NCBI GenBank assembly: GCA_028707125.1 | Contig: JAQTUX010000001.1 | Coordinates: forward strand, 1,130,438-1,194,437 | Direction of reading: 5' to 3' | Length of the DNA stretch: 64,000 nucleotides | Source of the DNA: Candidatus Omnitrophota bacterium | GTDB lineage: Bacteria; Omnitrophota; Gorgyraeia; Gygaellales; JAQTUX01 | Part shown: piece after piece, positions 4,871 to 59,517 of the stretch | Position numbering within the stretch: the first letter of the stretch is position 1 | Layout of the letters: each line of letters opens with the position of its first letter | Translations under genes and position numbers: made by a program | The notes under the pieces: generated by a model | The model's input: only the letters and a program-made list of their open reading frames with translations | The model's database searches: none | What the model was told of the DNA's origin: nothing

Positions 4871-4878
4871 GTACGGAT

Positions 4879-5634: not shown

Positions 5635-5646
5635 TTTTTGCCGATT

Positions 5647-6438: not shown

Positions 6439-6599
6439 TTGGCCCCCCCCTATTTATAATTACGTCTGACGTTGTTGTCAAGGATAATTTCATCGTATCT
6501 CTATGTTTATCAAGGAGTAAGCGAGTTATGATACTAATTTATTTAACAGATAAGGTTATCAATAATTATTATATAAATTTTTATTTTTCAATGAGTTAA

Positions 6600-6620
6600 G
6601 CAGAAACGACACTATTTTCG
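6600..6620 (-). promoter_or_regulatory. Conserved upstream motif, copy 2 (GCAGAAACGACACTATTTTCG)
   Basis: ~160 nt upstream of the 5647..6438 start. 20/21 identical to copy 3. Confidence 0.35.
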
Positions 6621-6623
6621 TTT

Positions 6624-7028: not shown

Positions 7029-7034
7029 AAGATT

Positions 7035-13403: not shown

Positions 13404-13405
13404 AT

Positions 13406-17978: not shown

Positions 17979-18640
17979 CGGAATAGTTCGCTGAATAAAA
18001 ACCTGAAGAACCGAAGGGTATCCACAAAGGGGTTTATCTGGCTTTTTCTGTTGAAATAAAGCGTCTTGATGGGGATCGACCGGATCCTGTAACCCATTCT
18101 TGACGCCCGGATCAGGATCTCGGATTCTGTCTCATATTTTGAAGTGCCCAGCTTGACATTCTTCAGGACACCGGGGATAAACAGGCGGAACCCGCATTGG
18201 CTATCGGGTATTCTCTGCCCTGTCAAGCCTGAGATGCCCCAGGACATCAATTTATTGGTCATATAGCGAAGCGGCGGCATAGCCGACGCGTCGCTCATCC
18301 TGTTGCCGATTATGATCTCCGCCCCGTTCTTTTCCGCCTCGTCAATAAACTTATCAATGTCATTCGCGCAGTGCTGTCCGTCTCCGTCCATGGTGATCAC
18401 CGCGTCAAAACCCCCTGACAAGGCGTTATCAAACCCTATTTTCAAGGAAGCGCCCTTGCCCAGGTTGCGCGCGTTACGGACAACCTTCGCGCCGGCATTC
18501 TCCGCGGCTTCCGATGTCTTATCCTCTGAGCCGTCGTCGATCACCAATACATCCAATTCCTTCGCGCGAAGCTCAGAAACCAGGCCGCCTATATTCTCCT
18601 CTTCGTTAAGGGTCGGTATTATTACGCAGGCCTTCATCTT
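17975..18640 (-). CDS. Family 2 glycosyltransferase (polyprenyl-phosphate sugar transferase-like)
   Basis: CVIIPTLNEEENI...LVIDDGSEDKT...MDGDGQH. The start is chosen at MKACVIIPT. Confidence 0.7.
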   Translation of the reverse strand, partial: KMKACVIIPTLNEEENIGGLVSELRAKELDVLVIDDGSEDKTSEAAENAGAKVVRNARNLGKGASLKIGFDNALSGGFDAVITMDGDGQHCANDIDKFIDEAEKNGAEIIIGNRMSDASAMPPLRYMTNKLMSWGISGLTGQRIPDSQCGFRLFIPGVLKNVKLGTSKYETESEILIRASRMGYRIRSIPIKTLYFNRKSQINPFVDTLRFFRFLFSELFR

Positions 18641-19493
18641 AGATCCAGAATTGACGGAACATAAACCACTGCTCGGGATAACGCCTGATATAACCCTCAA
18701 TAATACGCAGGCACCTCTTTGCTAATTCTACCACGTCTTTTTCTTCATTGCCTGTGGCAACCGGCAGGATCGGCTCCTCAAACCTCAGATTGAATTTGCC
18801 GTCCTTCTGGACGGTGATAAATCCCGGGATTATGGGCGTGTTGGCCTTAAAGGCGAGCATCGCCGGCCCTCTAGGTATGATAGCAGTCCTGCCGAAGAAA
18901 TCAAGCCGGAATCCTCCCCGCGTAAAATCCCTGTCGCCTACCAGCGCCACCACCTTGCGCTCTTTAAGCGCCTTGAGGCATTTCTTTACGGCGCCGCCCA
19001 AAGGCACTATTTCAACCCCTGTATGCCCGCGCTGCTTATTGAAAAATTCATCTATCCGCTTATTCTTATGGACCATTGCCACGGCTACCACGGGATAGCC
19101 GCGAAGCGCGGTAACTGCCGCGGCAAGCTCCCAATTGCCGATATGAGCGGTAGTCGCTATTACCCCGCCGTATTTCTTAAGAGATTCGGATATATACTCC
19201 ATATTCTCCATCACCACGTGCTTCTTAATAAATTTATCGTCAATTAACGCGAACTTAAAGAATACCGCCAGGTACCTGCCGAAATTCCTGAACATCTTCC
19301 AGGAAATAAGCAGTATCTCTCCGCGGCTTTTCTCCGGGAATATGGCCCGAAAGTTAGCTATCACAGCCCTTCTGTCTTTTCCGGCAATAATGAATTGGAT
19401 AGTACAGACCAGATCGGCAAGGGTGTAGGAAAGCCGCAGCGGCAGGCATACCGCGATAAAATGTCCTAATCTGTAAATGAGGTAATTGACCAC
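18639..19493 (-). CDS. Lysophospholipid acyltransferase (LPLAT / HtrB-LpxL-like) family protein
   Basis: ~284 aa with an N-terminal TM segment and a GNWE-containing acyltransferase region (TTAHIGNWELAA). Confidence 0.6.
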   Translation of the reverse strand: MVNYLIYRLGHFIAVCLPLRLSYTLADLVCTIQFIIAGKDRRAVIANFRAIFPEKSRGEILLISWKMFRNFGRYLAVFFKFALIDDKFIKKHVVMENMEYISESLKKYGGVIATTAHIGNWELAAAVTALRGYPVVAVAMVHKNKRIDEFFNKQRGHTGVEIVPLGGAVKKCLKALKERKVVALVGDRDFTRGGFRLDFFGRTAIIPRGPAMLAFKANTPIIPGFITVQKDGKFNLRFEEPILPVATGNEEKDVVELAKRCLRIIEGYIRRYPEQWFMFRQFWI

Positions 19494-24612: not shown

Positions 24613-25089
24613 TTATACCGCAATAAGTTCTGAGTGCTCAATTATTCTTCTTGCCTTTAGGGTCTTTTCTGTCATCTCTTCTATTATTATGTCTCTGTAA
24701 ATAAGCTGTCTTCTCTCCTGGCTGCTTGCTAAATTGTGGTATAAGGGATCGCCTTGAATTAAAATATCCTTTGCTCCATAGGCATAATGGAGATAGCTGG
24801 AAAACCGATATTCTTCAGGCCCCTTGACTATACCTGCCCTGACAGGATTGAGTTCTATGTACTTGCCGCATTGAATAAGGTATTCCTCATTGTCTATAGT
24901 CTTTGCCTTGAACCTGTCCTGCCAGAGATGGCCGCAGTAGGCATACTTTCTTCTGTAATAGTAGACGTACCTCAGGTTTACCCGCTTCATGAACCTGGAA
25001 AGGTTGCTTGCTTCGTTTACTTCCAGTATCAGGTGTATATGATTGCTCATCAGGCAATCTGATATGAATTTTTTGATATGTGATGGCAA
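24613..25089 (-). pseudogene. IS200-like/Y1 (REP-associated-type) transposase, N-terminally truncated
   Basis: Carries the HxH motif SNHIHLIL and the conserved YCGHLWQDRF...NPVRAGIV block of Transposase_17-like proteins. The ORF begins directly at the HxH region and lacks the usual N-terminal ~50-60 aa. Confidence 0.55.
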
Positions 25090-25145
25090 ACTTTGCGATG
25101 GATGAAAAGTACCTGTTAGACCCGATCCCCCGCTAGGTTCAATAC

Positions 25146-25532
25146 TTACTTTCCTCTATATATCGTAATTATATCTCCATTGTTTGCATTAACAAAAATA
25201 CAAAGATCCCCACCCTTATATGACTCTTCGGCTTGCTTAGGTTTATAGTAATAATACACAGCCCAGTACTCTTTATTCATAAGCTTATTCTGTCTCTCGA
25301 TACAGTAATCGGAATTACAATCTTTTGGTAAATAATCATTCCAAGGTGTATTATATTTAGTAACCTTGATATCCATAATCTTAGTATCATATCCGAGCAT
25401 TATTGCTTCTTTGTTAGCAATCTCAATGATTTGTTCTTTTGTAATATTCATATTATTTCCATATATTTTTAGAAAATATGCTGCTAAAAAAATTATTGTC
25501 AATAAAGTAATCCCTATGTAGATTTTTCTCAC
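25146..25532 (-). CDS. Putative immunity protein (membrane-anchored) for the orphan RHS tip
   Basis: Immediately 3' of the orphan RHS C-terminal ORF. Homologous to ORF 26463..26852 (NITKEQIIEIANKEA.. vs MITLEEAIGIGNKEL..; YWAVYYYYKP...GGDLCIFVNANNGDIITIY vs YWVVSYIPKKP...GGIAIIFIDRTNGKILDFY). Confidence 0.5.
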   Translation of the reverse strand: MRKIYIGITLLTIIFLAAYFLKIYGNNMNITKEQIIEIANKEAIMLGYDTKIMDIKVTKYNTPWNDYLPKDCNSDYCIERQNKLMNKEYWAVYYYYKPKQAEESYKGGDLCIFVNANNGDIITIYRGK

Positions 25533-25555
25533 ATTTCTCTCCTATAAATTTAAAA

Positions 25556-26270
25556 CTACTTCTTTTTATCTTTACGTTTTTCTCCTGAAGGTTGAATATC
25601 TGTCTGTTGATTACTTGATGGTTCATATTTCTTAACTGCGCCACTGGGAGTTCCTAAATATCCTGTCGTTCCTGACCGTCTATTATCCGCTATATCTTGT
25701 AACGAGAAGTTCTCATTATTATAACCAGGATCGTTTGCACCATGAGTATGATAATCTCCTACCACCCTACCGCCCGATGGTCTTGGCCCTAAAGAGGTAC
25801 CCGCTTTACTACCAGGATACGGTTTAGTATAAGAGTATGTTCCGTTAGGATTCTCATATACCCATCCACCATATTCCCGTCCTTCTGAAATTGATTTTGG
25901 ATTTATATCGTTTACTGCATCTTTTCCAGCTGCATCTTCTGTTGGATAGGGATCACCGGGCTTTAACCCCCAAGGATCTATCCAGATTAACGGATTATTA
26001 TAACAATACAAATATAAATTTGTAGCTAAAAATAAGTGCCCCCACGGATCCCTCTGCAAGAACCTCCCCAGCATTGGCGAGTAGTGGCGAGCCCTGTAGT
26101 AATACAGCCCTGTCTCAAGGTCATACTCCCTGCCGGTGAACATGTAGGGATTGCCGATGGATGAGGCAGTGGATGGCTTGCCGTAGGCGTCGTAGGTGTA
26201 GGATTCAACGGTTGAGCCGGATGAGTCGGTGAGAGCGGTCACGCTGCCGAAGCCGTCAAATAGGCAGATA
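25556..26270 (-). CDS. Orphan RHS C-terminal fragment with alternative DUF4329-like toxin domain (displaced toxin tip)
   Basis: Begins within the RHS core (FDGFGSVTALTDSSGSTVESYTYDAYGKPS...GRFLQRDP). Its DNA is identical to the 3' core of RHS 26849..30673, then diverges (..NPLIWIDPWGL + GGWVYENPNGTYSYT...DYHTHGANDPGYNNENFS). An upstream in-frame stop lies at about 26273. Confidence 0.6.
26046..26259. repeat. Direct repeat copy A (~214 bp), identical to 27359..27573
   Basis: An identical nucleotide run is visible in both places. The ORF-track spurious ORFs 26026..26208 and 27304..27522 are identical over 55 aa. Confidence 0.85.
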
Positions 26271-26462
26271 ACTTACGGAGCCTAGCGAACGTAAGTTATA
26301 GGCCGAAGACCACCTGCGAATTTATCCCGAGCTTACGCAGTCCCGACGTATCGTCGGAACAAGTGTTAAGCGAGGGACAAAGCTGTCAAAGAGCAAAAAT
26401 ATTTGTTTTGCAAGCTAGTAAATTACAGCGCTTTATGTAGAGCGTCTGAAGATCCTTTTTAT

Positions 26463-26852
26463 CTATTCCCCTCCATAAAAATCAAGTATTTTTCCATTGG
26501 TTCGATCAATAAAGATTATTGCAATCCCTCCTAGCATCGGCTTTTTTGGTATATATGAAACTACCCAATACTTTCTTCCATCATTATGCAGCTTCCTGAT
26601 TTTTTCTTGTAAAATAATGGGAAAAAATGAATCGACCTCCTCCCAGGCCATCTCTTCATTATCGGCTGTTATCTTCAAATCGTTTTCGGATAAAGAATCG
26701 CCTCTTCTTTCTAACTCTTTATTTCCTATCCCTATTGCTTCTTCTAAAGTTATCATTAACCCCTCTTCCTGTAATGCATTTGAAATTTTGCCCGAGCAAC
26801 CAGAGATAGATAGGACTAACATAACAGCTAAAGATAATTTTAATAGTTTCAT
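26463..26852 (-). CDS. Lipoprotein, putative immunity protein for the RHS DUF4329-like toxin
   Basis: Signal peptide plus lipobox LSISGCSG. It overlaps the RHS stop by 4 nt. Homologous to 25146..25532. Confidence 0.55.
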   Translation of the reverse strand: MKLLKLSLAVMLVLSISGCSGKISNALQEEGLMITLEEAIGIGNKELERRGDSLSENDLKITADNEEMAWEEVDSFFPIILQEKIRKLHNDGRKYWVVSYIPKKPMLGGIAIIFIDRTNGKILDFYGGE

Positions 26853-29800
26853 TTTTTATTAGATGTCCCTTCTTTCAATCCTATCGGTTCTGTGATCTCT
26901 TCTTTTGAATGATCATATTCCTTCTTATTACCACTTGGTGTAATGAGATACCCATCTACACCATTACTATCAGCATAAGGTACATCGCCTTGCCATGTGG
27001 CCGTTCTGCGGTCATAATAGTTTGAAAAGTTCTCATCATCATAATCTGGGCCGCTTTCCGCACCATGAGAATGATAATATGCAGTCCCATTAGGTGGTTT
27101 ATGACCGGGATCCGAACTGTGAGCTGAACCTTCTCGAGGAGGAGTATATGAATACGTTCCATCGCTATTACGATATATCCAACCGGCGTTTTCTCTGTCC
27201 TTCCTTACTGATGGCTCGTGGATATCGTTGAGAGCATCATTTGCAGCATCATCTTGCGTAGGATACCTATCTCCTGGCCTATATCCCCAAGGGTCTAATA
27301 AATTTACAGGGTTGTTGCGAACATACTTATAAAGATTAGAGCCGTCCATGTAATCAAAGGGATCCCTCTGCAAGAACCTCCCCAGCATTGGCGAGTAGTG
27401 GCGAGCCCTGTAGTAATACAGCCCTGTCTCAAGGTCATACTCCCTGCCGGTGAACATGTAGGGATTGCCGATGGATGAGGCAGTGGATGGCTTGCCGTAG
27501 GCGTCGTAGGTGTAGGATTCAACGGTTGAGCCGGATGAGTCGGTGAGAGCGGTCACGCTGCCGAAGCCGTCAAAGTGGTAATAGCAGCGGAGGTTTAAAC
27601 CTCCGCTACCGATCATACAGATCGGTTCATCAATACCTGGGCCGTAGATGTATTTCTTGGTTGGGTTGCCTTGGTCGTCATACTCGGCGATGATTTGGTC
27701 GCCGTCGTAGAGGAAGTTGGTGGTTTTGCCATCGACGGTCTTTGAGGTGCGCCTGCCAAAGGGGTCGTATGTGTAGATTGCTTCCCCGCCAAGATTCGTG
27801 GCGGGTCGCAATGACGATGCGCTGATTAGACGGTTCTCGTAGTCATAGGCGTAGGCGAAGCTGCCGTCATTAGCCAGGTTGCCGTTTGCGTCATAGGCGT
27901 AGTTAGTTGTGCCGACTTTTGTGTATTGGTTGAGGTTATTGGTGGTGTAGTTTGTCGTGCGGTTGCCTGTCTCATCATAGTCGTAGGCAGTGTCAAAGAA
28001 GGCAAAGCCGTCAGGGTAGTTGACGGCTGTTAGCTGGTAGGTCTTATCATATTCATAAGAGTGGTCGCCCTGTTCTGTCTGCATTGTCAAGCGGTTACCC
28101 GCGTTGTCGTAGGTGTAGGAATAGGGGTTAGGTATAGAGTTAGAGACATTGGTAAGGGTTGTCAGGCGGCTGGCTGGGTCATAGTCGTAGAGAGAATAGG
28201 TGTTGTTGGGATAGTCAAGCCGCGTCCTGCGGGAGAGGGGGTCGTAGGTGTAGGAGGCGACGGCCCCGCTTTGCCCCATAAATGGAGCAACTACATTAGT
28301 GAGACGGTTGAGTTCATCATATATATAGGTAATGTAGGTATTGTCCGGATATGTTAGTTTAGTACGATTGGAATTGGCGTCATATTCATAAAAGACGGAT
28401 TTATTGCCGGGAGAAGTTACCTTGCTGACGCGGTTGGCTGTATCATAGTCGTAATGTAGTGTTCCGGTTTGATCAATAATATCAAGCAGCCGGGAGCCGA
28501 TGTCATACACGTAGTCAACGCTTGATTTATCAGGATAGGTCTTTAAGTCCAGCCGGTTAAGCGGGTCATAGCCGTAGCTGATGATCTGGCCTTTGGGGTC
28601 TTTCTTGGCTGTGAGGTTGGAACTGAAGTCATAGGCGTATTCCTCTTTTGAGCCGTCAGCATAGGTGGTAGAGATGGGCCGGTCAAAGCTGTCATAGGCG
28701 TAGGTTGTGGTATTTCCTTTGGAGTCGGTAATTTCTTTGAGGTTGCTGTTTGCGTCGTAGGAGTATTCGGTAGTGTTGTCTGCGGCGTCGGTTACCTTCC
28801 ATAAGAGGTTACGTTCATCATATTCGTAGCAGGTAGAGTTGCCTTCTGCGTCCTCTACCTGGCTGCGGTTGCCGTTGGCATCGTAACTAAAGGTGGTGAT
28901 ATTGCCTAATTCGTCTTTTACGGTCTCTATACGGTCTAAAAGATCATAGGTGTAGTAGGTTGTCTGCCAGGGGTTATCCGTCTCACCTGTCTGCCTGCGG
29001 AGTTCAATCAAGTTATCATTCTCGTCATATTTATAGATGGTTTCGTAGTTAAAAGGCGGGCTGGATATAGCTTTAATCAGGTTATTGTGGCTGTCGTATT
29101 CAAAGGTGGTGGTGTTGCCTCTGGGGTCTGTCGTTGTCTTGAGGTTGCCTGCAGTATCATAGGTAAACTGGGTAGCGATGTTAAGAGCACCCTGTGCAGC
29201 GGTTGTCTTGATTAAGTAGCCGGTATCAGGGTTGTATTCGTAGGTAGTTACATTGTTATTGGAGTCGGTTACGCTTGTGAGCTGGCCAAAGGTATTGTAG
29301 GTGAAGGTTACCTCTGGCGTCCTGCCTGAGACAGCCGGATAGGTTATGTTTGTGAGGTTGCCTTTTGAGTCGTATTCATAGGTGGTGGTGCTGCCTTTGG
29401 GGTCGGTTGCGGTCTTAATCTGGTTAAAGCTCGACTCATAGGTAAAGGCAGTTACTATGTCATTTGCAGGGTCATTACTGTCAGGGGTGTTGGCTTTCTT
29501 ACGCCTGATTTCTAAGATGTTCCCCTTGTTATCATAGGTGTATTTGACCCAGTTGCCTCTGGGAGAGGTTATCCTGGTGCGCTCGCGGCCCTGGTTGTAT
29601 TCGTATTTGGTCTGATAATAAGAAGTGCCGGTATAATACTGCCTCTGGCTTTTTACTGTGCCGTTGGAATTGAGTTCGTATTCTGTCTTAAAACCCCTGG
29701 GGTCAATAAGGGTAGTGAGGTTGGTCTTGTAGGTAAATTGGTATTTGCCGCCTGCGTAGACAAGTTCCTTGACGCGGCTGTCCTCATCATACTCCAAAGA

Positions 29801-30673
29801 TAGGTATTGGCTGCCTCGGGCATCGGCGATAGAGGTTAGCCGGTGTTTATCGTCATAGGTATATACGGTGGTTGTGCCTGCGGGATAATCCTCTGTGGGA
29901 GGAGTAGTTACATAGATTGGGTTGCCGTCTGAATCGTATTCATATGAAGTCAGGCGGCCGCTGAAGTCCCTTAGCCGGCTTACCTTATGTTCAGGATTAT
30001 AGGTAAACTCAATAAAGCGGCCTGAACTGTCGCTAACCTTACTCAATACGGCTGTTTGCGGGTCATACTCCAGAGAGATGACATTATTGTTTCGGTCGGT
30101 AATTGAATTCAGGCGGCCTTCTAAGCCAAAACGATAGATTAAACCGTGCTTATCATGGATAACATAGCCGCCTGCCTCTTTGGTCAAAGTATCGTAACAG
30201 CCGGCAGGAGCTGTGTAAGAGCCGTCGGAATTCTGCAGGAACTTGTCCTTTGAGCCGTTGGCATTGCGCCTTAGAACGTAATCCTCCCTACCGTCTGAAA
30301 ACTCCAACAGGAAGATGTTGTAACTGTGGCTTGTGCCTATGCCAAATGGGCCCTCGTAGGCATCTAAACTACTGTAGAAACGCCTTATCTCTAAGGGGAG
30401 GCCTCGTGAGGGGACAAATAAGTCCTTATTTTGGTAGAAGAAATTACCGTTTGAGATGTCAACAGGGTCTGCTGCCTCTGTCCTGTTCTTCTGGTTTATA
30501 TCAGGGGGCTGGGCCGCTGCAGCGTCTGAGGCGTCTACTCCGCCCTCCCCGGAAGCAAGCGAGGCGTCATTCCAACAAGGAAGCTCGGCAAATGCTACTG
30601 GAGATAGAAAAATATTAAAGGCAAAGAAGAAAAGCGTAAATACCGAGATAACCTTTAAGAGGCGGCTATTCAT
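26849..30673 (-). CDS. RHS-repeat protein (1274 aa) with C-terminal DUF4329-like toxin domain
   Basis: Signal peptide and dozens of YD repeats. The RHS core ends ...YYYRARHYSPMLGRFLQRDP...NLLDPWGY. The tail GWIYRNSDGTYSYT...AYYHSHGAESGPDYDDENFS...DGYLITPSGNKKEY resembles DUF4329, as I recall it. Confidence 0.8.
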   Translation of the reverse strand: MNSRLLKVISVFTLFFFAFNIFLSPVAFAELPCWNDASLASGEGGVDASDAAAAQPPDINQKNRTEAADPVDISNGNFFYQNKDLFVPSRGLPLEIRRFYSSLDAYEGPFGIGTSHSYNIFLLEFSDGREDYVLRRNANGSKDKFLQNSDGSYTAPAGCYDTLTKEAGGYVIHDKHGLIYRFGLEGRLNSITDRNNNVISLEYDPQTAVLSKVSDSSGRFIEFTYNPEHKVSRLRDFSGRLTSYEYDSDGNPIYVTTPPTEDYPAGTTTVYTYDDKHRLTSIADARGSQYLSLEYDEDSRVKELVYAGGKYQFTYKTNLTTLIDPRGFKTEYELNSNGTVKSQRQYYTGTSYYQTKYEYNQGRERTRITSPRGNWVKYTYDNKGNILEIRRKKANTPDSNDPANDIVTAFTYESSFNQIKTATDPKGSTTTYEYDSKGNLTNITYPAVSGRTPEVTFTYNTFGQLTSVTDSNNNVTTYEYNPDTGYLIKTTAAQGALNIATQFTYDTAGNLKTTTDPRGNTTTFEYDSHNNLIKAISSPPFNYETIYKYDENDNLIELRRQTGETDNPWQTTYYTYDLLDRIETVKDELGNITTFSYDANGNRSQVEDAEGNSTCYEYDERNLLWKVTDAADNTTEYSYDANSNLKEITDSKGNTTTYAYDSFDRPISTTYADGSKEEYAYDFSSNLTAKKDPKGQIISYGYDPLNRLDLKTYPDKSSVDYVYDIGSRLLDIIDQTGTLHYDYDTANRVSKVTSPGNKSVFYEYDANSNRTKLTYPDNTYITYIYDELNRLTNVVAPFMGQSGAVASYTYDPLSRRTRLDYPNNTYSLYDYDPASRLTTLTNVSNSIPNPYSYTYDNAGNRLTMQTEQGDHSYEYDKTYQLTAVNYPDGFAFFDTAYDYDETGNRTTNYTTNNLNQYTKVGTTNYAYDANGNLANDGSFAYAYDYENRLISASSLRPATNLGGEAIYTYDPFGRRTSKTVDGKTTNFLYDGDQIIAEYDDQGNPTKKYIYGPGIDEPICMIGSGGLNLRCYYHFDGFGSVTALTDSSGSTVESYTYDAYGKPSTASSIGNPYMFTGREYDLETGLYYYRARHYSPMLGRFLQRDPFDYMDGSNLYKYVRNNPVNLLDPWGYRPGDRYPTQDDAANDALNDIHEPSVRKDRENAGWIYRNSDGTYSYTPPREGSAHSSDPGHKPPNGTAYYHSHGAESGPDYDDENFSNYYDRRTATWQGDVPYADSNGVDGYLITPSGNKKEYDHSKEEITEPIGLKEGTSNKK
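27359..27573. repeat. Direct repeat copy B (inside the RHS core coding region)
   Basis: Identical to 26046..26259. Confidence 0.85.
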
Positions 30674-31103
30674 CTGCTTCCTTGTTGTTGATTACAACCT
30701 CTTTTATTCCAATGGCCGAGGGGCCGGATTTATCCCAGAAATTAACAATTATTTTATGCGTGCCATTTTCGTATTGGGCGGTATCTAAAACACAACCGAA
30801 GGAGAACCGCGCATCGCTGCCTTCTTCAATGCCTGTAGTCTGGTGAATCAATTGTTCATCTAAAAAATACTCTACCAGATACCTATCCCGTTCTATTTTA
30901 TCAGGAACGAGGCTGATGTTAACAAAAATTTTCCCGTAAACCTCCAGCGGCTCTAATTTAGGCGCGGGCGCTGTCATCTTAGAGGTGCTTTCTTTGGGAA
31001 AGATTAGTTCCAAAAGCAATTGTTTGTCGGGCGCCTCTTTTGCTAATGCGCTAAAGTAAAACAAAGTGATAAAAACCATAAGCCAAAAAAACTTCTTCAT
31101 CAT
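30666..31103 (-). CDS. Secreted hypothetical protein
   Basis: Signal peptide MMKKFFWLMVFITLFYFSALA. It overlaps the RHS start by 8 nt. Confidence 0.45.
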   Translation of the reverse strand: MMKKFFWLMVFITLFYFSALAKEAPDKQLLLELIFPKESTSKMTAPAPKLEPLEVYGKIFVNISLVPDKIERDRYLVEYFLDEQLIHQTTGIEEGSDARFSFGCVLDTAQYENGTHKIIVNFWDKSGPSAIGIKEVVINNKEADE

Positions 31104-31119: not shown

Positions 31120-34100
31120 CTAATAGAAAATTTCTGTATGTAAGGTATAACCTTCCGAGTAATTTCCGTCTTTTTCCGCCTGGATTACTGCTCTATAGAA
31201 ACCTTCGGCTAACAACTTTCCCTGGTTATTTCTGCCGTCCCAGATAAAAGAATTACTACCCTGCGCGCAGGGATGGTTATTCAGCAAATTACGCACCGGA
31301 TTGCCTTCAGAATCATAAATATTTATCGTAACATTGGCGTCTCTGGGAAGAATAAAAGAAATTATGCTTTCTGAAACAGATGTACTGTAAGGATTGTCAT
31401 AAGGGCTAAAACGCATCGGCCCGACAGCCGGCCTGCTGATTACAGGCCTGCCTCCCACCACCATAATAGAATTCTCATCCAATGTATAGCCCCAGATAGC
31501 AAAGGTAAAATCAGCGGGGTTAACAAAATTTCCCGCCTCATCCCTGCCGTCCCAGAGTATCTGATGCATGCCTGAAGAAACCGGCTCCTGATATTTTAAC
31601 ACCCTGACAGCCGGGCCAGAATATCTCTCGTAGCGGACCTTGAGGTTTATTTTGGCTGCCTGGGGTAAAGTATAATTTATGACGCAGAATTGATTTAAAA
31701 GCGGCTTAAAGTCGCCGGCAGAGAGAGTAATGCTTTTAGAGATATCCCTTCCGCCTGTGCCGCGCGGGTCATAGACAACCATGGGCCTGCCGCCTGCGCT
31801 ATCCTCAATGATAAAATAGTATGCACCATCAGGCACAATCCTGCCGGTGTTATCTTTTCCGTCCCAGGACTCTGAGTAAGCGCCTGCCTGCCGATCTTGA
31901 TTTAGAATAATATTTTTTACTAATTCGTCCCTGCTATTATAAACCTTAATGCTTAAAATGCCTTCGTGTGACATTCTATAAGATATGGTTACTGCCCCTC
32001 CTGTGTAAGGATTGATTTTGTCCGTAGAAATACGGATGTTAGAAATAAACAATATGGAGACATTCAGATAAACAGAAGATACCTCTTCTCCGTTCTCTGC
32101 TCTGGCGCCTATTTTTATGGTATATCTTCCTTCAGGAAGGTATGCGCCCTGCTCGTCTTTACCGTCCCAGATTGTGCTATGGTTACCATAAGAAAGGAAT
32201 TGATTGTCTGTTAACTTTCTCACCAAGGCGCTTTGCTGGTTATAAATCTCTACGCTGACATAAGAATTCTCGGATAGACTATAAGAAATGGCGGTTGTTT
32301 CGTCTACGCCGTCACCGTCCGGAGAGAAGGGATTGGGCGTAATTCTGGCAGTAGTGATAAATACATTTTTGCTCACGTTAATTGTCGCTGCCTTCTGTCT
32401 GTTAACGCTTCCCGCATTTACAATAAGCGTATATGTGCCATTGGGAACCGGGTTGCCGTTCTGGTCGCGGCCATTCCATTGCAGATTTATCAAGTTGCTC
32501 TGGGGCTCCGGAGTCAATACTCCATAAACAAACTGCCTGACTATTTGACCGTTACTGTCAAGAACCTTAATATCAAAAAAGCCCTGTTTAGTGGTTGTAA
32601 AGGAAATGTTGGCGATATCATCCAGGATGCGGTTAGGGCCGGGGTCGTTGAATATTTCTCCTGTATCTATGTCTACCCAGGTGCCGCTTTCGTCCGGAGA
32701 AAAGGGATTTGGCATAACCGAAATATCGCCTATATCAGGAATTTCATTTGATAAAGAAATACTATAACTACCCCTAGCATCAATATTGTGGTCAGAGACA
32801 AAAATGTAATAAATCCCTGCTGCAGGCAAAGAATGAATGATGCTGCCGGAAGTAGAGTCGGCGATCATCTTCCCTGCGTTATCATAGAGCCACACATAAG
32901 GAGAAAAATAATTATTACCGCTGACTTTAGAAAAACATATATCCGCGTATAAATTATCTCCTTCATTTATGGTAAATCTGTATACATCCATATCTATAGG
33001 CGAGGAGATCTCAGAGGTTACTGTCTCGCCGAAGGCGATATTTGTTGCATTTGCCGGATTATTTAAATTCTGCACGCTCATCTTATACCCGCCTGTCTTG
33101 TAGTTATTATAATCCATTGCGTAGATGTAGTAGGTGCCTGCCCGGGCAAGTGAGACACTTAAGGATGTTGAGGTAGAGGTATAAATCCTGTTAAGCTGAT
33201 TGCCATTGTCGTCATAGACGGCTATGTAAGGCGTAAATACCCCTGTTGTCTTGATGAGATTTATAATCAGAGTATCTGCCGCGCTTACTGTAAAGGAGTA
33301 GGCATCTATTTCAGCGGGAGCCGAGATAGCGGCGTCTATGGTCTGACCCGCAGTTAAGGCAACTGCTCCTGCCGGGTTGTTGAGCCGCTGCAGGCTAAAG
33401 GAATAATTTCCTGAACTTACATATGTAGTGTCAATAATATTTACATATTCATAGTCCGTAAGAATGAGCGCGTATCTGCCTGTCTTGGGAAGCTTCTCCA
33501 TGAAATGGTTATCTATTGTATCTGTTGCGGTTGATGTTGAATTCAAATGATTGCCTGTATCGTCATAAAGTGCGGCAGAGACATTAAAATTGCTACTGCC
33601 TCCTGTCTTGGCTAAGGCGACGTAGATATAGTCGTCTTTATTGGCATTAAAGGTATAGGACTTAAGGGGAATAAGGGGCGATAACAGGCCTGACTTGCTT
33701 TGGCCAAGAGAGATCTCCTCTGCCTGGGCTGGATCATTCATCCGCTGAGCCGTTAAAGCATATGTGCCTGTATGTATGCCAGAGTGGTCGGTTACAGTAA
33801 GCATGAATGTACCTGCGGTAGCAGGCCGGACAAATAAACAGCTGGCTGTCCGGGTATCGCCAGAGGCAATATCTCCACCTTGGGAGTCAAACAGGCGAAG
33901 GTATGGCCGGAATTTATCTCCTCCTCCTATCTTGGCAAAAAGTATGTAGATATTATCGTCTTTAGAGACACTAAGAGAGTATGTGGCAGTAGGGCTGTCG
34001 GATGAGATTGCGCCTGTGACTGTAGTGCCGAAGGAGAGCTGGGTAATATCAGGATTGTTGACGCTCTGCACGCTCATCTTATACACGCCTGTCTTGTAGT

Positions 34101-37100
34101 TATCTTTGTCCCTTACGTAGATGTAGTAGGTACCTGCTCGGGCAAGTGGCACGTTTAAAGATGTTGAAGTATAGGTATAATCGCTTTCAAGCGGATTACC
34201 CTTATCGTCAAAGACCACTATGTAAGGTATAAACGTCCCTATTGCCCAGGTGAGGTTTATAATCAAAGCATCTGCTGCGCTTACTGTAAAGGAGTAGGCG
34301 TCTATTTCAGTTGGCTTTGAAATAGTGGTATCTATGGTCTGACCCGCAGTTAAGGCAACTGCTCCTGCCGGGTTGTTGAGCCGCTGCAGAGTCAAGGCAT
34401 AATTACCTGTATTCTGGCCTGTCAGATCTGAAATAGACAGAATAAACCTGCCTGAATAAGGTAAATGTTGCAATAAGTGATTAACTCCTTCTTGCGGCCA
34501 GGAGTATTTGGTATCCGCCGACTCGATAAGATTACCAGTTGAATTATATAGTTTTAAACGAGGACTAAGATTACCGCTTGTTTTAGCAAAAGGCACGTAG
34601 ATCAGGTCGTCCTTGTTGGCATTGAAGGTATAGGTAGTTACGGGCCTGCCTGCTGAGACTATGCCGGTGACCGTAGAGCCAAACTCAAGATTGGCCTGGG
34701 GGTTATTTACGCTCTGCAGGGTTATAGTATAACTGCCTGTCCCATAATCAGAGTCATTCCCTACATGGATATAATAAGTGCCTGCCTGAGGCAGAGCCAC
34801 CCGTAAAGTGAAAGCGACAGTTGACTCCGGGTAGATATACGCGCTTGTTGTGCCCAGTCGCTTGCCTTCGCTGTTATATATATCTATATAAGGTCGGAAT
34901 TGACCGGAGGATTTGATAAGGTCTATAAACAGAAAATCGGCCGAGGTAGATGTGAAGCGATAGAAGTCAATTTCAGCAGGTGTTAATATGGAGGCGGATA
35001 TGGTTTGGCCGGCTGAAAGTTCTACTGCGCCGCCTGGGTTATTCAGCCGCTGCAGGGTCAGAGAATAATTGCCTGTGTTTGTACCGGTAGAATCCGATAC
35101 AACTAACGCATATCTGTCTGTTGCCGGGAGTACCTTACTAAGGGTAGCGGATCCTGTGGTAGATACATAATCAATGCGAGCACCGCTTGAGTTAAACAGC
35201 TGAAGATGTGGCTTGAAGTTACTGCCTGCTGTCTTAGCAAAAGGTATATAGAGCTGGTCGTCCTTGTTAGCGTTAAAGGTGTAGGTAGTTGCGGGGCTGG
35301 CGGCTGAGATTGTGCCGGTAACTGTGGAGCCGAACTCAAGATTGGGAACCTCTTGGCTATTTACGCCCTGCAGGGTTATGGTATAACTGCCTGCAGCATC
35401 TACATTATCGTCGGAAATTAAAATGTGGTATGTCCCTGTAACTGATAATAAATGAACTATTCTGTCAGAGGCGTACTCAGCAACCATCCCCCCTTTATTG
35501 TCATAGAGCCGCACATAGGGAGAGAAAGAACTATTACCGCTGACTTGAGAGAAACGTATATCCGCGTATAAATTATCTCCTTCATTTACGGTAAACCTGT
35601 ATACATCCATATCTATAGGCGAGGAGATCTCAGAGGTTACTGTCTCGTTGGGAGTAATATCCACCGCGCCGCCTGGGTTGTTGAACCGCTGAGCGGTCAG
35701 AGTGTAATCACCTGTGTTGGTGCCGGTGTAATCTGAAACAATGCAAGTGAAAGTACCTGAAGAGTCCGCCTTTTCAATCCGATAAAAGGTTGTATCGGTA
35801 CTTGCTGATTCAATATATGTGGTAGCTGAACCAAACAGCTGCAACCGCGGTCGAAGAGTACCTCCTGTATTGGCAGCAGCAATATAAATATAGTCATCCT
35901 TGTCAGCATTAAAGGTGTAAGTGTCAGAGGGACTGTCGGCTGAGATTGTTCCAGTGACAGTAGAGCCGAATTCGAGGTTGGGAATATCGGGATTGTTTGT
36001 GCTCTGCAGGGTTATCGAGTAGGTACCTGTTGAATAGTCGCCTGTATAGTAGCTGGTGCCGTCTATTACGTATACGTAATATGTACCTGCTCGGGGAAGC
36101 GATACATTGAAATTCAAGGAAGCAGTCGAGTCCCAGACGAGGTCTCCTGCTCCCAACCAATCACCTCGACTGTCATATATCTCCACGCTAGGCCTAAATT
36201 CTCCTCCCGTCTTGATCAAATTGATAATTAAGGAACCGGCCGAGGCGGCGGTGAATCTGTAGGCGTCAATCTCGGTAGGAGACGATATAGAGGCAGACAA
36301 TGTCTGTCCGTCCGAAAGCTCTACCGTCCCACCCGGGTTGTTCATTCGTTGCACGGTCAGAGTGTAATCACCTGTGTTGGTGCCGGAAACATCTGAGACG
36401 GCGAGAGTAAAGGTGCCTGAGGAATTGAGTTTGCCGTATAAGCAGCCGGGTATCAGCATCAAGGGGAATTCCTCGTATGGCTCGGATAAATAGAGACCTG
36501 AAGCATCAAACAGCTGTGGCTGCGGCTGCAGGCTGCCGCCGGTATTGGCAAAAGGTATGTAAATATAGTCGTCCTTCTCGGCGCTAAAGGTGTAATAAAT
36601 AACGGGGCTGCTCTCTGAGATTGTGCCGGTGACCGTGGAGCCGAACTCAAGCTCGGTAATCTCGGGATTGCTTACGTCGCGCAGGGATATTGAGTAGCTG
36701 CCTGTGTTATATAACAAAGAATCCATTACATATATATAATATGGCCCTCCTTCGGGAAGTAAGATACCTAAAGTACCTGAATCATATATGGTTTTATAAC
36801 CCAAGATATTACCCTTTGTATCATGCGCTTCTACGTAAAGTTCGGATGAGCCGGAGGATTTGGTAAGATCTATCAGTAAAGAACCATCTGAGGTAGATGT
36901 GAAACTATAGGCATCTATCTCGGTAGGGGCCGATATATCGGCAGACAAGGTTTGGCCGGCTGAAAGTTCTACTGCACCGTCTGGGTTATTCAATCGCTGC
37001 GCGGTTAACACATAATTACCGGCGCGCATACCGGTGTAGTCTGAAACGGTGAGATTAAAGGTGCCCGAAGAAGTAATCTTACCGGATAAGTATGCGGTTG

Positions 37101-38793
37101 TCTGATAATCAATATAATAAATACCTAATAAACCGCGCGCCTCCAACATAGGTTGCGGCTGCAGCCATGGTTGAAGATCTCCTTCTGTCATGGCAACAGC
37201 GATATAAATGTAGTCATCTTTGTTTACATTGAAGGCGTAAGTATCAGAAGAGTTGCCTGTTGAGATTGTGCTGGTGACCGTGGAGCCGAACTCAAGCTCG
37301 GTAATCTCGGGATTGCTTACGTCGCGCAGGGATATTGAGTAGCTGCCTGTCTTGTAATCATCGCCAGCCATTACATATATATAATAAGTACCTACTTGTG
37401 GCAGAGATATACTTAAGGAGGCCGAGTCCTCTATTCTTCTATAATCAAGAACGTTGCCCTCTGTATCATATACCTCTATGTAGGGCCGGAACTCACCAGA
37501 AGATTTGATAATGTCTATAAGTAAACAATTGGCTGATGTGGCTGTAAAACTATAGGCGTCAATCTCGGTAGGTGCTGATATGGAAGCAGATCGGGTTTGG
37601 CCGGATGAGAGAGCTGTTACTACCCCACCTGGGTTGTTGAACCGTTGAAGGGTAAAGGCATAATCGCCTGTGTTTGTGCCGGTATAATCAGAGACAATCA
37701 GTGTAAAGGTGCCTGAAGAAGCGAGTTTGCCTGATAGGTAGTTTCGTACCTCGAACATTACTGGTCCTAGTAAGACAGGGGCGCCTGATGAGTCCAAAAG
37801 TGCCAGATAAGGCAAAAGAGCGCCCCGGGTCTCAACCGCTAGAATAGAAATATAATCATCTTTGTTGGCGCTGAAAGTATAGGTTCTAATAGGGTTTTGT
37901 TTAGAAATAGTATCTATTATGGTCTGTCCAAAAGAGATCTGTCCAGCAGAGATAATGCGGCTTTTAGTCCCTCTAATCTTAATCCCGCTTGTCTCCTTCC
38001 AGCCAGATTCAAAATTATTTATGTCTTTGGCATATAAAGAGACGACCTCTCTTATATTGCGGCTGGTATTGTTTACGAATAGGATGGGCCATTTGACCTC
38101 TAACGTATTTCTTGAGCCGCTTATCTTGACTTCAGAGCAGTCCAACGTTGCCTGCCACTCAGTCAGGTCTACCTGTATGGTCCGCTCTGCGCCCGGGGCA
38201 TAGCCGCCGCTCCACTCTGAAAGATTACCCGAAGCATATAACCTATTCTCCTGTAGGTTATACCTAAAGTAAGCCCCTCCGATAGACATATATACATCCT
38301 GTAGGTCCTGCCAGCCGGCATTGTCAAAATAAGTGGCGCTAAGTTCCAATTGCTCATTGGAACGGACTATCTCATCCTCGGGACTAACTGAGCCCGTGTA
38401 GGGTGTGGAGTTGTGTATAATGGTGTATACGGCTGTCTTTTGGTCGGTCTCTACCCCGTCTGTTACCCAGAAGGTGATAGGGTGTGTTCCTACATCGGTT
38501 TCTTCTGGCATCCAGTAGAACCTGCCTGTCTGGGCGTCTAAAGTGGCGTTTCCCCGTAATCCTTCTGCGCCAAAGACCAGTTGATTTGTGCGGTTGTATT
38601 GAACTCGCAGCGTGAATGAAATCGGCCGGCTGCCGGCCATGATAGTGCGGCCTCTAATACCGTTTAACGTCAGGCCAACATTGGCTGAGGCAGATATATC
38701 TGCGAATGCAAATGGCAGGATAAACAAAAACAGGGATATACAGAATATCCCTGTTTTAATGGCGCGGATTATGGGCCTTTTGGTTTTAAGCAC
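31120..38793 (-). CDS. Giant secreted repeat protein (2557 aa): ~8 alternating PPC/pre-peptidase-C-terminal-like repeat pairs plus five C-terminal FlgD-Ig-like domains
   Basis: GTG start with AAGGA RBS, and a signal peptide. Recurring blocks ..NNPGGAVELSAGQT.SA.IS.PTEIDAY.FT...AGTYYIYV..D...TG.Y..SLQ and ..NPEI..LEFGSTVTGTIS...DTYTFNANKDDYIYI.. Ends with repeated PNPFSPDGDG...V.IYN..G..V..L...WDGKD..G..VP.G.Y units. Confidence 0.8.
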   Translation of the reverse strand: MLKTKRPIIRAIKTGIFCISLFLFILPFAFADISASANVGLTLNGIRGRTIMAGSRPISFTLRVQYNRTNQLVFGAEGLRGNATLDAQTGRFYWMPEETDVGTHPITFWVTDGVETDQKTAVYTIIHNSTPYTGSVSPEDEIVRSNEQLELSATYFDNAGWQDLQDVYMSIGGAYFRYNLQENRLYASGNLSEWSGGYAPGAERTIQVDLTEWQATLDCSEVKISGSRNTLEVKWPILFVNNTSRNIREVVSLYAKDINNFESGWKETSGIKIRGTKSRIISAGQISFGQTIIDTISKQNPIRTYTFSANKDDYISILAVETRGALLPYLALLDSSGAPVLLGPVMFEVRNYLSGKLASSGTFTLIVSDYTGTNTGDYAFTLQRFNNPGGVVTALSSGQTRSASISAPTEIDAYSFTATSANCLLIDIIKSSGEFRPYIEVYDTEGNVLDYRRIEDSASLSISLPQVGTYYIYVMAGDDYKTGSYSISLRDVSNPEITELEFGSTVTSTISTGNSSDTYAFNVNKDDYIYIAVAMTEGDLQPWLQPQPMLEARGLLGIYYIDYQTTAYLSGKITSSGTFNLTVSDYTGMRAGNYVLTAQRLNNPDGAVELSAGQTLSADISAPTEIDAYSFTSTSDGSLLIDLTKSSGSSELYVEAHDTKGNILGYKTIYDSGTLGILLPEGGPYYIYVMDSLLYNTGSYSISLRDVSNPEITELEFGSTVTGTISESSPVIYYTFSAEKDDYIYIPFANTGGSLQPQPQLFDASGLYLSEPYEEFPLMLIPGCLYGKLNSSGTFTLAVSDVSGTNTGDYTLTVQRMNNPGGTVELSDGQTLSASISSPTEIDAYRFTAASAGSLIINLIKTGGEFRPSVEIYDSRGDWLGAGDLVWDSTASLNFNVSLPRAGTYYVYVIDGTSYYTGDYSTGTYSITLQSTNNPDIPNLEFGSTVTGTISADSPSDTYTFNADKDDYIYIAAANTGGTLRPRLQLFGSATTYIESASTDTTFYRIEKADSSGTFTCIVSDYTGTNTGDYTLTAQRFNNPGGAVDITPNETVTSEISSPIDMDVYRFTVNEGDNLYADIRFSQVSGNSSFSPYVRLYDNKGGMVAEYASDRIVHLLSVTGTYHILISDDNVDAAGSYTITLQGVNSQEVPNLEFGSTVTGTISAASPATTYTFNANKDDQLYIPFAKTAGSNFKPHLQLFNSSGARIDYVSTTGSATLSKVLPATDRYALVVSDSTGTNTGNYSLTLQRLNNPGGAVELSAGQTISASILTPAEIDFYRFTSTSADFLFIDLIKSSGQFRPYIDIYNSEGKRLGTTSAYIYPESTVAFTLRVALPQAGTYYIHVGNDSDYGTGSYTITLQSVNNPQANLEFGSTVTGIVSAGRPVTTYTFNANKDDLIYVPFAKTSGNLSPRLKLYNSTGNLIESADTKYSWPQEGVNHLLQHLPYSGRFILSISDLTGQNTGNYALTLQRLNNPAGAVALTAGQTIDTTISKPTEIDAYSFTVSAADALIINLTWAIGTFIPYIVVFDDKGNPLESDYTYTSTSLNVPLARAGTYYIYVRDKDNYKTGVYKMSVQSVNNPDITQLSFGTTVTGAISSDSPTATYSLSVSKDDNIYILFAKIGGGDKFRPYLRLFDSQGGDIASGDTRTASCLFVRPATAGTFMLTVTDHSGIHTGTYALTAQRMNDPAQAEEISLGQSKSGLLSPLIPLKSYTFNANKDDYIYVALAKTGGSSNFNVSAALYDDTGNHLNSTSTATDTIDNHFMEKLPKTGRYALILTDYEYVNIIDTTYVSSGNYSFSLQRLNNPAGAVALTAGQTIDAAISAPAEIDAYSFTVSAADTLIINLIKTTGVFTPYIAVYDDNGNQLNRIYTSTSTSLSVSLARAGTYYIYAMDYNNYKTGGYKMSVQNLNNPANATNIAFGETVTSEISSPIDMDVYRFTINEGDNLYADICFSKVSGNNYFSPYVWLYDNAGKMIADSTSGSIIHSLPAAGIYYIFVSDHNIDARGSYSISLSNEIPDIGDISVMPNPFSPDESGTWVDIDTGEIFNDPGPNRILDDIANISFTTTKQGFFDIKVLDSNGQIVRQFVYGVLTPEPQSNLINLQWNGRDQNGNPVPNGTYTLIVNAGSVNRQKAATINVSKNVFITTARITPNPFSPDGDGVDETTAISYSLSENSYVSVEIYNQQSALVRKLTDNQFLSYGNHSTIWDGKDEQGAYLPEGRYTIKIGARAENGEEVSSVYLNVSILFISNIRISTDKINPYTGGAVTISYRMSHEGILSIKVYNSRDELVKNIILNQDRQAGAYSESWDGKDNTGRIVPDGAYYFIIEDSAGGRPMVVYDPRGTGGRDISKSITLSAGDFKPLLNQFCVINYTLPQAAKINLKVRYERYSGPAVRVLKYQEPVSSGMHQILWDGRDEAGNFVNPADFTFAIWGYTLDENSIMVVGGRPVISRPAVGPMRFSPYDNPYSTSVSESIISFILPRDANVTINIYDSEGNPVRNLLNNHPCAQGSNSFIWDGRNNQGKLLAEGFYRAVIQAEKDGNYSEGYTLHTEIFY
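32950..37900. repeat. Intragenic tandem DNA repeats (~360-750 nt period) within the giant gene
   Basis: Recurrent near-identical stretches, e.g. gggttgttgagccgctgcag, gtagatat(a/c)gtcgtccttgttggc, and gaccgtggagccgaactcaagctcggtaatctcgggattgcttacgtcgcgcagggatattgagtagctgcctgt, which occurs twice exactly. Confidence 0.6.
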
Positions 38794-59031: not shown

Positions 59032-59517
59032 TCATTTTTTCCAATTATTTCTTATTTGTCTGCCATTAAAGACAAAATAATAAATATCATGCCAGCCTTT
59101 TTTGAGAATTTTTTTGAAATAACGAGGGGTGACACTATCAGAATTACTATCGATTTCATCAACTACTTTATCCCATTCTAATTCTTTGTTACAAACTGGG
59201 CATCGTGGGATTGCATCTATTGTAAATTTTCCACCACAGGAACATGGCTGTAAACCCTTGGAGATCGCTATCTTCATTTTCTTGATATTTTCTTCAAATA
59301 TAGCTAAGTCTTGTTTTCTATGTGTATTATACTTTCTCCCTAAAATATATTTTTCATAGAATCTACCCTTGGACATTTCTTCGCTATATGTATCTACGGT
59401 AGCCACTATCCCACATTGGTCACAATAAAAGAATATCTCGTCGCCAAAACCAGCGTGAGCAAATTCAAAATTAAAAGACGAATTACAGTGATAACAATGC
59501 AATATTTTCTCTGGCAT
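59032..59517 (-). CDS. Putative immunity protein with zinc-ribbon-like Cys pairs
   Basis: Starts 2 nt after the RHS stop. CxxC...CxxC (CYHC..CDQC) and CSC..CPVC pairs. Confidence 0.5.
   Translation of the reverse strand: MPEKILHCYHCNSSFNFEFAHAGFGDEIFFYCDQCGIVATVDTYSEEMSKGRFYEKYILGRKYNTHRKQDLAIFEENIKKMKIAISKGLQPCSCGGKFTIDAIPRCPVCNKELEWDKVVDEIDSNSDSVTPRYFKKILKKGWHDIYYFVFNGRQIRNNWKK

Follow-up and report, generated by a model that had tools for sequence, protein, structure and literature searches.

How does an intact toxin tip come to lie, with a small partner gene of its own and without the rest of its protein, behind a complete RHS (rearrangement hotspot) gene? The question is raised by a locus in a 64-kb stretch of a Candidatus Omnitrophota genome (contig JAQTUX010000001.1; the whole stretch of 64,000 nucleotides is called the window here, and positions are window coordinates). 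There, an RHS toxin gene of full length and its predicted immunity gene, imm1, are followed by an orphan RHS module with a second tip and a second predicted immunity gene, imm2. We put at about 85% the probability that the locus, part of a diderm Candidatus Omnitrophica genome, encodes polymorphic toxins in the classical rhs "main plus orphan" arrangement: it has the YD/RHS shell, the core motif, a variable tip with a small downstream gene, and an orphan core fragment, the toxin and immunity roles being predicted. Every gene between 24.6 and 38.8 kb lies on the minus strand, and the elements of the locus are, in the order in which they are read:

26849..30673, minus strand: full-length RHS toxin gene, 1274 residues (open reading frame and profile matches)
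27360..27574, minus strand: repeat copy A, a stretch of core end within the full RHS gene (repeat search, 215 nucleotides, 100%)
26852..27283, minus strand: tip 1, the C-terminal toxin domain (residues 1131-1274), Tox-JAB-2/DUF4329 (profile and alignment)
26463..26852, minus strand: imm1, Imm-NTF2-2, 129 residues, lipoprotein signal ..VLSISG/C (PF15631, E = 4.3e-7)
26261..26462, minus strand: non-coding spacer between imm1 and the orphan module, 202 nucleotides, GC content ∼50%, single copy
25556..26272, minus strand: orphan RHS module (open frame, TIGR03696 and PF14220 matches)
26046..26260, minus strand: repeat copy B, the fragment of core end at the head of the orphan module (repeat search)
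25146..25532, minus strand: imm2, Imm-NTF2-2, 128 residues (PF15631, E = 3.7e-6)

The two modules and their shared repeat

The full-length gene encodes, in order, a signal peptide, a DUF6531 domain (PF20148, residues 69-141, E = 1.9e-14), a shell of YD/RHS repeats (PF05593, E = 2.3e-91 over 11 stretches; TIGR01643, E = 2.6e-61), an Rhs-associated core that closes with NPVNLLDPWGY (TIGR03696, residues 1056-1130, E = 8.5e-24), and a Tox-JAB-2/DUF4329 tip (PF14220, residues 1141-1261, E = 7e-19, 68.3 bits against a cut-off of 28.6). The N-terminus reads as a Sec-type signal peptide (residues 1-29, MNSRLLKVISVFTLFFFAFNIFLSPVAFA followed by ELP, with cleavage after ..SPVAFA), and the autoprotease motif at the core end is QRDPFDY-x18-DPWGY. 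Neither PAAR, VgrG nor any other type VI secretion system (T6SS) domain was detected among the window proteins scanned. With a Sec signal peptide, DUF6531 and no T6SS domain, the protein is therefore filed as the Sec type ("T2SS" in Zhang et al.).

The orphan module has no N-terminal part, only a core-end fragment, and begins 202 nucleotides past imm1. Its frame is open from just past a TAA at 26273-26275, and the first possible start, a GTG at 26242, gives a protein of 228 residues. An Rhs-associated core occupies residues 17-93 (TIGR03696, E = 3.4e-24), closes with NPLIWIDPWGL and carries the autoprotease motif QRDPWGH-x19-DPWGL; it is followed by tip 2 (residues 94-228, 25559-25963), again Tox-JAB-2/DUF4329 (PF14220, residues 104-214, E = 1.2e-26, 93.4 bits against the same cut-off). 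No Shine-Dalgarno sequence precedes the GTG, and the orphan by itself is most likely silent, whereas imm2 has its own ribosome-binding site. An earlier, sequence-only reading of this DNA had recognized the full RHS gene with its toxin tip and the orphan with a divergent tip, and these profile matches bear out both. It had called the tips "DUF4329-like"; the kinship stands, but the profile search that it asked for shows both to be true DUF4329/Tox-JAB-2 domains.

The repeat search across the window revealed a single long perfect repeat, a direct one of 215 nucleotides with 100% identity and a spacing of 1314 nucleotides (26046-26260 and 27360-27574); the window holds no other. Both copies are translated in one common frame and encode FDGFGSVTALTDSSGSTVESYTYDAYGKPSTASSIGNPYMFTGREYDLETGLYYYRARHYSPMLGRFLQRDP, a stretch that spans ...FDGFGSVTALTDSS... 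through ...MLGRFLQRDP. The repeat terminates at the first Asp-Pro of DPxG-x18-DPxGL, ∼25 codons ahead of the DPWG[YL] tip boundary, and the last ∼25 core codons are therefore supplied separately by each module. Beyond the tip-side boundary the modules retain ∼69% DNA identity in a 171-nucleotide alignment that includes 30 identical repeat bases, while on the core side of copy B (upstream of 26260) the comparison gave zero similarity to the RHS gene. Because identity falls beyond the tip-side boundary and no similarity exists on the core side, the perfect block is, on the evidence of the sequence, a sharp recombination or gene-conversion tract and not a product of chance. The exact duplication and the divergence past each copy had been seen before, but as a 214-bp repeat at 26046..26259 and 27359..27573, which is off by one in length and coordinates. 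The repeat had also been taken for the last ∼70 codons of the RHS core, and it is indeed a shared core-end segment, though it stops short of the very end; nor does it bound the locus, as had been proposed, since each copy instead heads (at the 5' end) one tip module.

A perfect repeat of this kind invites the suspicion of an assembly artefact, either because one segment was collapsed or duplicated or because two strains with one tip each were joined into a chimera. The source is a metagenome-assembled genome (MAG), and 215 nucleotides exceed the usual assembly k-mers, so that such repeats are sometimes mis-resolved. We compared the locus with Logan contigs (k = 31) of run SRR22315508, a separate assembly though not necessarily a separate sample. 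One contig (L098) matches window positions 27389..26231 and another (L097) positions 26075..24991, both at 100%. L098 starts 30 nucleotides (k-1) inside copy A and ends 30 nucleotides inside copy B, and L097 starts 30 nucleotides inside copy B; this is how a de Bruijn graph breaks where a genuine repeat is entered by two routes and left by two. These breaks mean, therefore, that the junctions of repeat to tip 1, spacer to repeat, and repeat to tip 2 are all present in the reads, and just one path takes in every edge of the graph, namely the assembled order or a tandem amplification of it. Furthermore, the locus lies on a 1.26-Mb NCBI contig and related loci display the same main/orphan layout. 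The artefact explanation, an objection that the sequence-only reading had itself raised, finds no support here; it is already largely refuted, and we regard it as very improbable. An NCBI protein from a Candidatus Omnitrophica MAG (P0001) also equals the orphan protein at 100% identity; when the exact sequences of the orphan protein, of P0001 and of two versions of imm1 were looked up, no record came back, only alternative start choices being recorded.

Origin of the cassettes and possible tip switching

Each tip is followed by a small gene, and the expectation that these encode homologous proteins of ∼128 residues is confirmed (129 and 128 residues, 32% identity, E = 2e-8). The ATG of imm1 overlaps the RHS stop codon by 4 nucleotides (ATGA), and because of this overlap we suggest that imm1 is translationally coupled to the RHS gene. 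The GTG start of imm2 lies 7 nucleotides past an AGGAG, with a gap of 23 nucleotides to the orphan reading frame. Both proteins had been taken for lipoproteins. This holds for imm1, which has an LSISGC lipobox, but not for imm2, whose hydrophobic N-terminus is a signal/anchor with neither lipobox nor Cys; nearly all homologues of imm2 likewise have an N-terminal hydrophobic signal/anchor. The matches to PF15631 (30.4 bits for imm1 and 27.4 for imm2, cut-off 26) are marginal and cover the C-terminal half only, and an iterated family hidden Markov model (HMM) connects both proteins to Serratia- and E. coli-type members.

To place the two pairs among their relatives, we used the tip profile to gather loci, 13 of them in species-representative genomes and 80 in metagenomes; the locus scans were run with a 22-sequence alignment, the 81-sequence tip alignment being too diverse for this. 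An RHS core end precedes 55 of the 81 unique tips in these loci, and directly downstream of 39 of the 55 the iterated HMM finds an Imm-NTF2-2-like member. Tips that share an immunity BLAST cluster are more alike (46.4% identity) than tips across clusters (41.6%, permutation p = 0.0005), while the matching test on the core end shows no effect (46.6% versus 45.7%, p = 0.22). Thus the downstream immunity gene varies together with the tip, and the core end does not; a lack of such co-variation is what the sequence-only reading had named, besides an artefact, as telling against it. A point against it is that the global Mantel correlation between tip and immunity identity, though positive, is weak (rho 0.15, p = 0.017). 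The window's own pairs follow the pattern closely: the four nearest tips to tip 2 (67, 66, 64 and 61%) have the four nearest partners of imm2 (70, 58, 50 and 45%) in the same order, and the nearest relatives of imm1 (in L087, L056, L081 and L045) sit after the four nearest tips to tip 1. Like imm1 itself, three of these four relatives (L045, L081 and L087) have a lipobox-like motif. GC content is 27-43% in tips and immunity genes and ∼50% in the core.

Because each pair is closer to pairs of other organisms than to its neighbour, and because the cassettes are lower in GC than the core, these comparisons argue for a horizontal origin, and for separate acquisition of the two pairs rather than duplication in place. 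Tandem duplication followed by divergence would account for two pairs in tandem behind a common repeat, with homologous tips (42% identity, E = 1e-28) and homologous immunity proteins. It fits poorly with tips that reach 67-68% identity to outside relatives, with immunity proteins that reach 70% and ∼39% to theirs against 32% to each other, and with pairs that come from separate immunity sub-lineages, one a lipoprotein and the other signal-anchored. The lower GC content of both cassettes relative to the core also speaks against it, and uniform divergence after a duplication would not leave a perfect 215-nucleotide block adjoining ∼63%-identical DNA. We consider this origin highly unlikely, only slightly less so than an artefact.

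What could the repeat do? A crossover between the two copies, performed in silico, yields an in-frame RHS protein of 1267 residues with one terminal stop, with DPWGH..DPWGL intact and with tip 2 at its end. The orphan would then be a former or reserve tip: a RecA-type crossover between the 215-nucleotide copies would delete tip 1 and imm1 and leave the in-frame protein with tip 2, and a prior duplication of the region, as in Salmonella LT2, would retain both versions. The earlier suggestion that the locus bears the footprint of recombination-mediated tip switching is supported to this extent, in that the repeat could join core and orphan tip in one frame; the direction of displacement, an actual recombination event and the route of delivery are what we infer from this arrangement.

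The layout has a close counterpart in Salmonella Typhimurium LT2, where a main rhs gene and its immunity gene are likewise followed by an orphan tip and its immunity gene, with a common core-end block. There, fusion of the orphan tip to the main core by recombination has been shown experimentally, after local duplication, through a block of 522 bp with 95% identity (Koskiniemi et al. 2014, PMC3967940). The window's block is shorter but perfect (215 bp, 100%) and is known from its sequence alone, and the LT2 toxins, unlike those of the window, belong to other families and are delivered by the T6SS. In loci related to that of the window, the core-end repeats of main gene and orphan are 84-96% identical (for example, 258 nucleotides at 95.7% in L078, 1023 nucleotides at 94.7% in L001, and 272 nucleotides at 87.5% in the Serratia locus L006). 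The window's 100% repeat is the extreme of this range, which suggests a recent event or ongoing conversion. The nearest relatives of tip 2 (68%) and imm2 (70%) are found on a 22-kb contig from Hainich groundwater (L001), also in an orphan module downstream of a full RHS gene. Positions 1-16000 of this contig encode a full RHS protein, which has Peptidase_C39 and RHS domains and counts 1642 residues or more, and then at least five orphan modules with differing tips, each with a small downstream gene; the fifth module is the relative of tip 2 and imm2. The core fragments there are 88-95% identical, unlike the perfect copy in the window.

The orphan might be kept for another purpose than as a reserve: for its immunity gene, as protection against tip-2-type toxins of neighbours, or as a self-contained toxin-antitoxin pair expressed from the internal GTG, a role reported for a Salmonella rhs orphan (PMC7043789). 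The orphan reading frame is intact with its catalytic residues conserved, the GTG at 26242 is available as a start, and imm2 has its own strong Shine-Dalgarno AGGAG with promoter-like hexamers close by. Yet the GTG lacks a Shine-Dalgarno sequence and the spacer a promoter-like site; the periplasm, the site of its immunity protein, would be out of reach for a tip deprived of RHS shell and signal peptide; and a core fragment that equals the main gene's at 100% points to exchange between the two, recent or still going on, rather than to a separate existence of the orphan. We judge such a purpose unlikely as the explanation of the orphan; an immunity or toxin-antitoxin role is, in any case, compatible with a role in recombination.

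Toxin domain and site of action

In the 81-sequence alignment, which includes both window tips, Y71, H72, H74, D90 and P106 are invariant, and E30, T73 and S87 are conserved in at least 90% of these same-family sequences. Read directly, the motif of E, HxH, S and D is intact in tip 1, as E (RENAGW), HSH, S (ENFS) and D, and also in tip 2. Structure prediction, which the sequence-only reading had recommended for tips and partners, was carried out for tip 2 and for the mature part of imm2, with mean confidence (AlphaFold pLDDT) of 93.8 and 90.3, respectively. The tip 2 model matches JAMM folds: a Foldseek search finds P. furiosus JAMM1 (5lda/5ld9) and Caldiarchaeum Rpn11 homologues with probability 1.0 and TM scores of 0.5-0.58. 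Searching the PDB by sequence, with tip 2 or imm1 as query, brought no meaningful match. Judged from residues and model, both tips look like intact metallo-hydrolases that have kept the residues of a JAMM-type zinc hydrolase.

This toxin and its partner were catalogued by Zhang et al. in 2012 (PMC3482391). In that survey Tox-JAB-2, which overlaps DUF4329, is RHS-borne and has conserved E, H[ST]H, S and D; it is paired with "Imm-NTF2 family 2", "T2SS"/Sec is among its trafficking modes, and it is predicted to be a nuclease from its RadC-like divergence and the loss of the ubiquitin-tail tunnel. The toxin and immunity families are the same as in the window. Imm-NTF2-2 is listed there for E. coli only, and export of the immunity protein goes unremarked; we found the pair in Omnitrophica, Planctomycetota, Bdellovibrionales, Pseudomonadales, Serratia and many metagenomes, with an immunity protein that is nearly always predicted to be exported. 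The "RNase" label that DUF4329 bears in later papers traces back to the prediction, and no experimental work on the activity or toxicity of Tox-JAB-2/DUF4329 was found in the searchable literature.

The signals of the immunity proteins bear on where the toxin acts. A hydrophobic N-terminus is present in 34-35 of the 39 Imm-family neighbours of RHS-linked tips, and also in 12 of the 15 downstream reading frames that the HMM missed. A lipobox-like motif occurs in 6 of the 39 and, with one further member that lacks an RHS core end (in L067), in 7 across the family matches. The host itself is diderm, having a lipid A acyltransferase gene at 18639..19493. T6SS effectors bypass the periplasm of the producing cell. 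The Serratia nevei locus (L006) has a VgrG gene, then an Rhs gene with DUF6531 and DUF4329, and next the gene for a 104-residue Imm-NTF2-2 protein with a typical signal peptide, named "YbbC/YhhH family" at NCBI; a T6SS-linked Rhs with a periplasmic immunity protein therefore indicates a periplasmic site of action. As far as such signals can tell, the periplasm or cell envelope is the most likely place of action of Tox-JAB-2, where it would work as a metallo-hydrolase and the exported immunity protein would block it.

Which bond might be cut is a more tentative matter. A JAMM-type amidase or isopeptidase would fit a periplasmic site better than an RNase would, and we favour, with rather less than even confidence, the view of Tox-JAB-2 as a JAMM-type metallo-(iso)peptidase that works in the periplasm on an amide or isopeptide bond of the envelope (for example, peptidoglycan cross-links or the lipoprotein-peptidoglycan link) and not as an RNase or other nuclease. 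If true, this would explain the Sec-exported or lipid-anchored Imm-NTF2-2 proteins from Omnitrophica to YbbC of E. coli K-12, and the Omnitrophica locus would represent Sec-dependent, T6SS-independent delivery of such an enzyme. The competing view, that Tox-JAB-2 is a cytoplasmic nuclease or RNase and that exported immunity protects only during export, has behind it the RadC-like divergence and lost ubiquitin-tail tunnel (PMC3482391), the "RNase" label of later papers, and a minority of partner proteins without a signal peptide. Experiments in its favour were not found in the searchable literature, the immunity protein is exported even where the Rhs is T6SS-linked (Serratia with its upstream VgrG; YbbC in E. 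coli), and the top structural matches are JAMM isopeptidases, with the peptidase-type E and S conserved. We consider a cytoplasmic nuclease doubtful, the less probable of the two.

Several observations nevertheless weigh against assigning toxin and partner to the periplasm, or the partner to the NTF2 fold of its name, without reserve. Imm-NTF2-2-like proteins without a signal peptide occur in L031, L035, L041 and L089, and a Salmonella survey reports non-exported CdiI-type partners of Rhs-DUF4329 (PMC10469887); periplasmic action may not be universal. For a Sec-exported RHS, moreover, periplasmic immunity could merely guard the producer while the toxin passes through. The imm2 model, a helix-on-sheet alpha+beta roll, gave nothing at E<1e-3 in Foldseek, and its best, weak matches are of PepSY type (YpeB, YpmB, CD1622 and FoxB, TM 0.39-0.49).

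Partners without a hydrophobic N-terminus (in L031, L035, L041-L043 and L089, for example MMQALLGADGAILKAFVAAYEAF...) form either a cytoplasmic branch or a set with misplaced starts. For imm2 itself we considered an alternative start at a conserved Met where the mature domain begins, with promoter-like hexamers at 25502-25473, that would give a cytoplasmic isoform; it was dropped because the aligned position is a structural hydrophobic residue (F, Y, I or L in other subfamilies). DUF4329 also occurs outside RHS proteins (L009-L011, L013-L016, L032, L038-L039, L047 and L061). In Isosphaeraceae and Mesorhizobium it is short and stands alone, followed by an unrelated, signal-less reading frame of ∼110 residues (..ISLIHLIQ..), and in Rhodobacterales it stands alone with a signal peptide and no obvious partner.

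Known systems and neighbouring genes

The domain pair is also present in a familiar genome. In E. coli K-12 the order rhsD-ybbC-ylbH (also rhsB-yhhH) matches the window in domain pair and gene order: the segment NC_000913 523261-528659 (L099) holds rhsD, ybbC and the pseudogene ylbH, RhsD ends in DUF4329 (E = 1e-37), YbbC matches PF15631 (E = 4e-26), and ylbH is an rhs core-fragment orphan. The N-terminus of YbbC, MKYSSIFSMLSFFILFAC, is hydrophobic, contains Cys and resembles a signal with lipobox; should this reading be right, it would speak against calling the RhsD tip an "RNase". The differences are also clear. The E. coli Rhs is of the PAAR/VgrG (T6SS) type, whereas in the window the RHS protein bears a Sec signal peptide, and T6SS genes were not found nearby; and the K-12 orphan is a pseudogene with a tip of another family, whereas the window's orphan is intact, has a tip of the same family as the main one, and agrees with the main gene at 100% identity over its core fragment. 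The Serratia tip with its immunity gene, compared as DNA with E. coli genomes, gave no match, and a large protein search gave two matches only.

The arrangement is thus already known: rhs main and orphan genes are established, the domain pair was catalogued in 2012, and it is present in E. coli K-12. What marks this member of the kind is the uncultivated Omnitrophica host, the export predicted for its immunity proteins, the Sec-type N-terminus and an unusually pristine substrate for recombination. The textbook rhs tip-switching layout extends to ultra-small uncultivated Omnitrophica, apparently with a Sec-exported rather than a T6SS-borne RHS. The locus itself adds little, and the comparative outcome is more useful: the widespread Tox-JAB-2/DUF4329, also found in RhsB and RhsD of E. 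coli K-12, is almost always accompanied by exported immunity, which calls its RNase annotation into question.

The genes that flank the island are these:

24613..25089, minus strand: truncated REP-associated tyrosine transposase (RAYT/IS200-like; PF01797, E = 1.3e-11; positions 53-146 of the 146 in model NF047646)
30666..31103, minus strand: secreted protein, 145 residues, with no family match; its stop overlaps the RHS start by 8 nucleotides
31120..38793, minus strand: repetitive surface protein, 2557 residues (FlgD_ig, E = 4.6e-44; PPC; CHU_C/Por_Secre_tail-like)

The first ∼50 codons of the RAYT gene are absent in any frame, and it starts 56 nucleotides past the imm2 stop. It marks the distal edge of the RHS island, which apparently either entered the RAYT gene or cut it short. 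No REP-like repeats were found near it. A link between RAYT and the spacer was nonetheless considered, in which the spacer would be a REP element tied to the neighbouring transposase; this was rejected, as neither the window nor the 98 loci collected showed a further copy. The spacer is strongly structured (minimum free energy -62.3 kcal/mol, z = -4.4 against shuffled sequence), with a long imperfect hairpin near CCGACGATACGTCGG and a 10-bp stem formed by ATAACTTACG and CGTAAGTTAT, and its GC content of ∼50% contrasts with the AT-rich cassettes. It has no Rfam match, no tRNA, no promoter-like site and no homology to the RHS core, and could serve as a terminator or insulator or be what a recombination site has left behind.

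Upstream of the RHS gene the packing is tight, with a gap of 16 nucleotides and then the 8-nucleotide overlap. From this spacing alone we infer that the genes for the 2557- and 145-residue proteins belong to the RHS operon, and their products might help to display the RHS protein at the surface or to deliver it. The larger protein consists of PPC-like modules, with a DNA periodicity of ∼650/1300 nucleotides, four FlgD Ig-like domains and weak matches to C-terminal domains of the type IX secretion system.

The surroundings of the island hold defence and mobile-element genes. Just past RAYT, the minus strand encodes at 22743-23977 a type IV toxin-antitoxin/abortive-infection pair, made up of an AbiEii nucleotidyltransferase toxin (E = 2e-19) and an adjacent helix-turn-helix protein. 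A second RHS system on the minus strand consists of a SpvB-domain protein of 1128 residues (13406..16792) and a protein of 2122 residues with FG-GAP, TcdB_toxin_midN and RHS repeats (7035..13403), together a Tc-toxin B/C-like pair; the latter's C-terminal tip has no Pfam match. Downstream, at 3537-6618, lie paralogous cassettes (4395-4694 and 6041-6340, 82%; 4809-4868 and 6559-6618, 80%) that may be duplicated immunity or orphan units. A third RHS-repeat protein, of 1404 residues with DUF6443 and Laminin_G_3 (59520-63734, minus strand), has no Pfam match in its last 199 residues and is followed by a reading frame of 161 residues (59032..59517). With the second and third RHS proteins, three different RHS-type toxin systems are therefore encoded within 64 kb.

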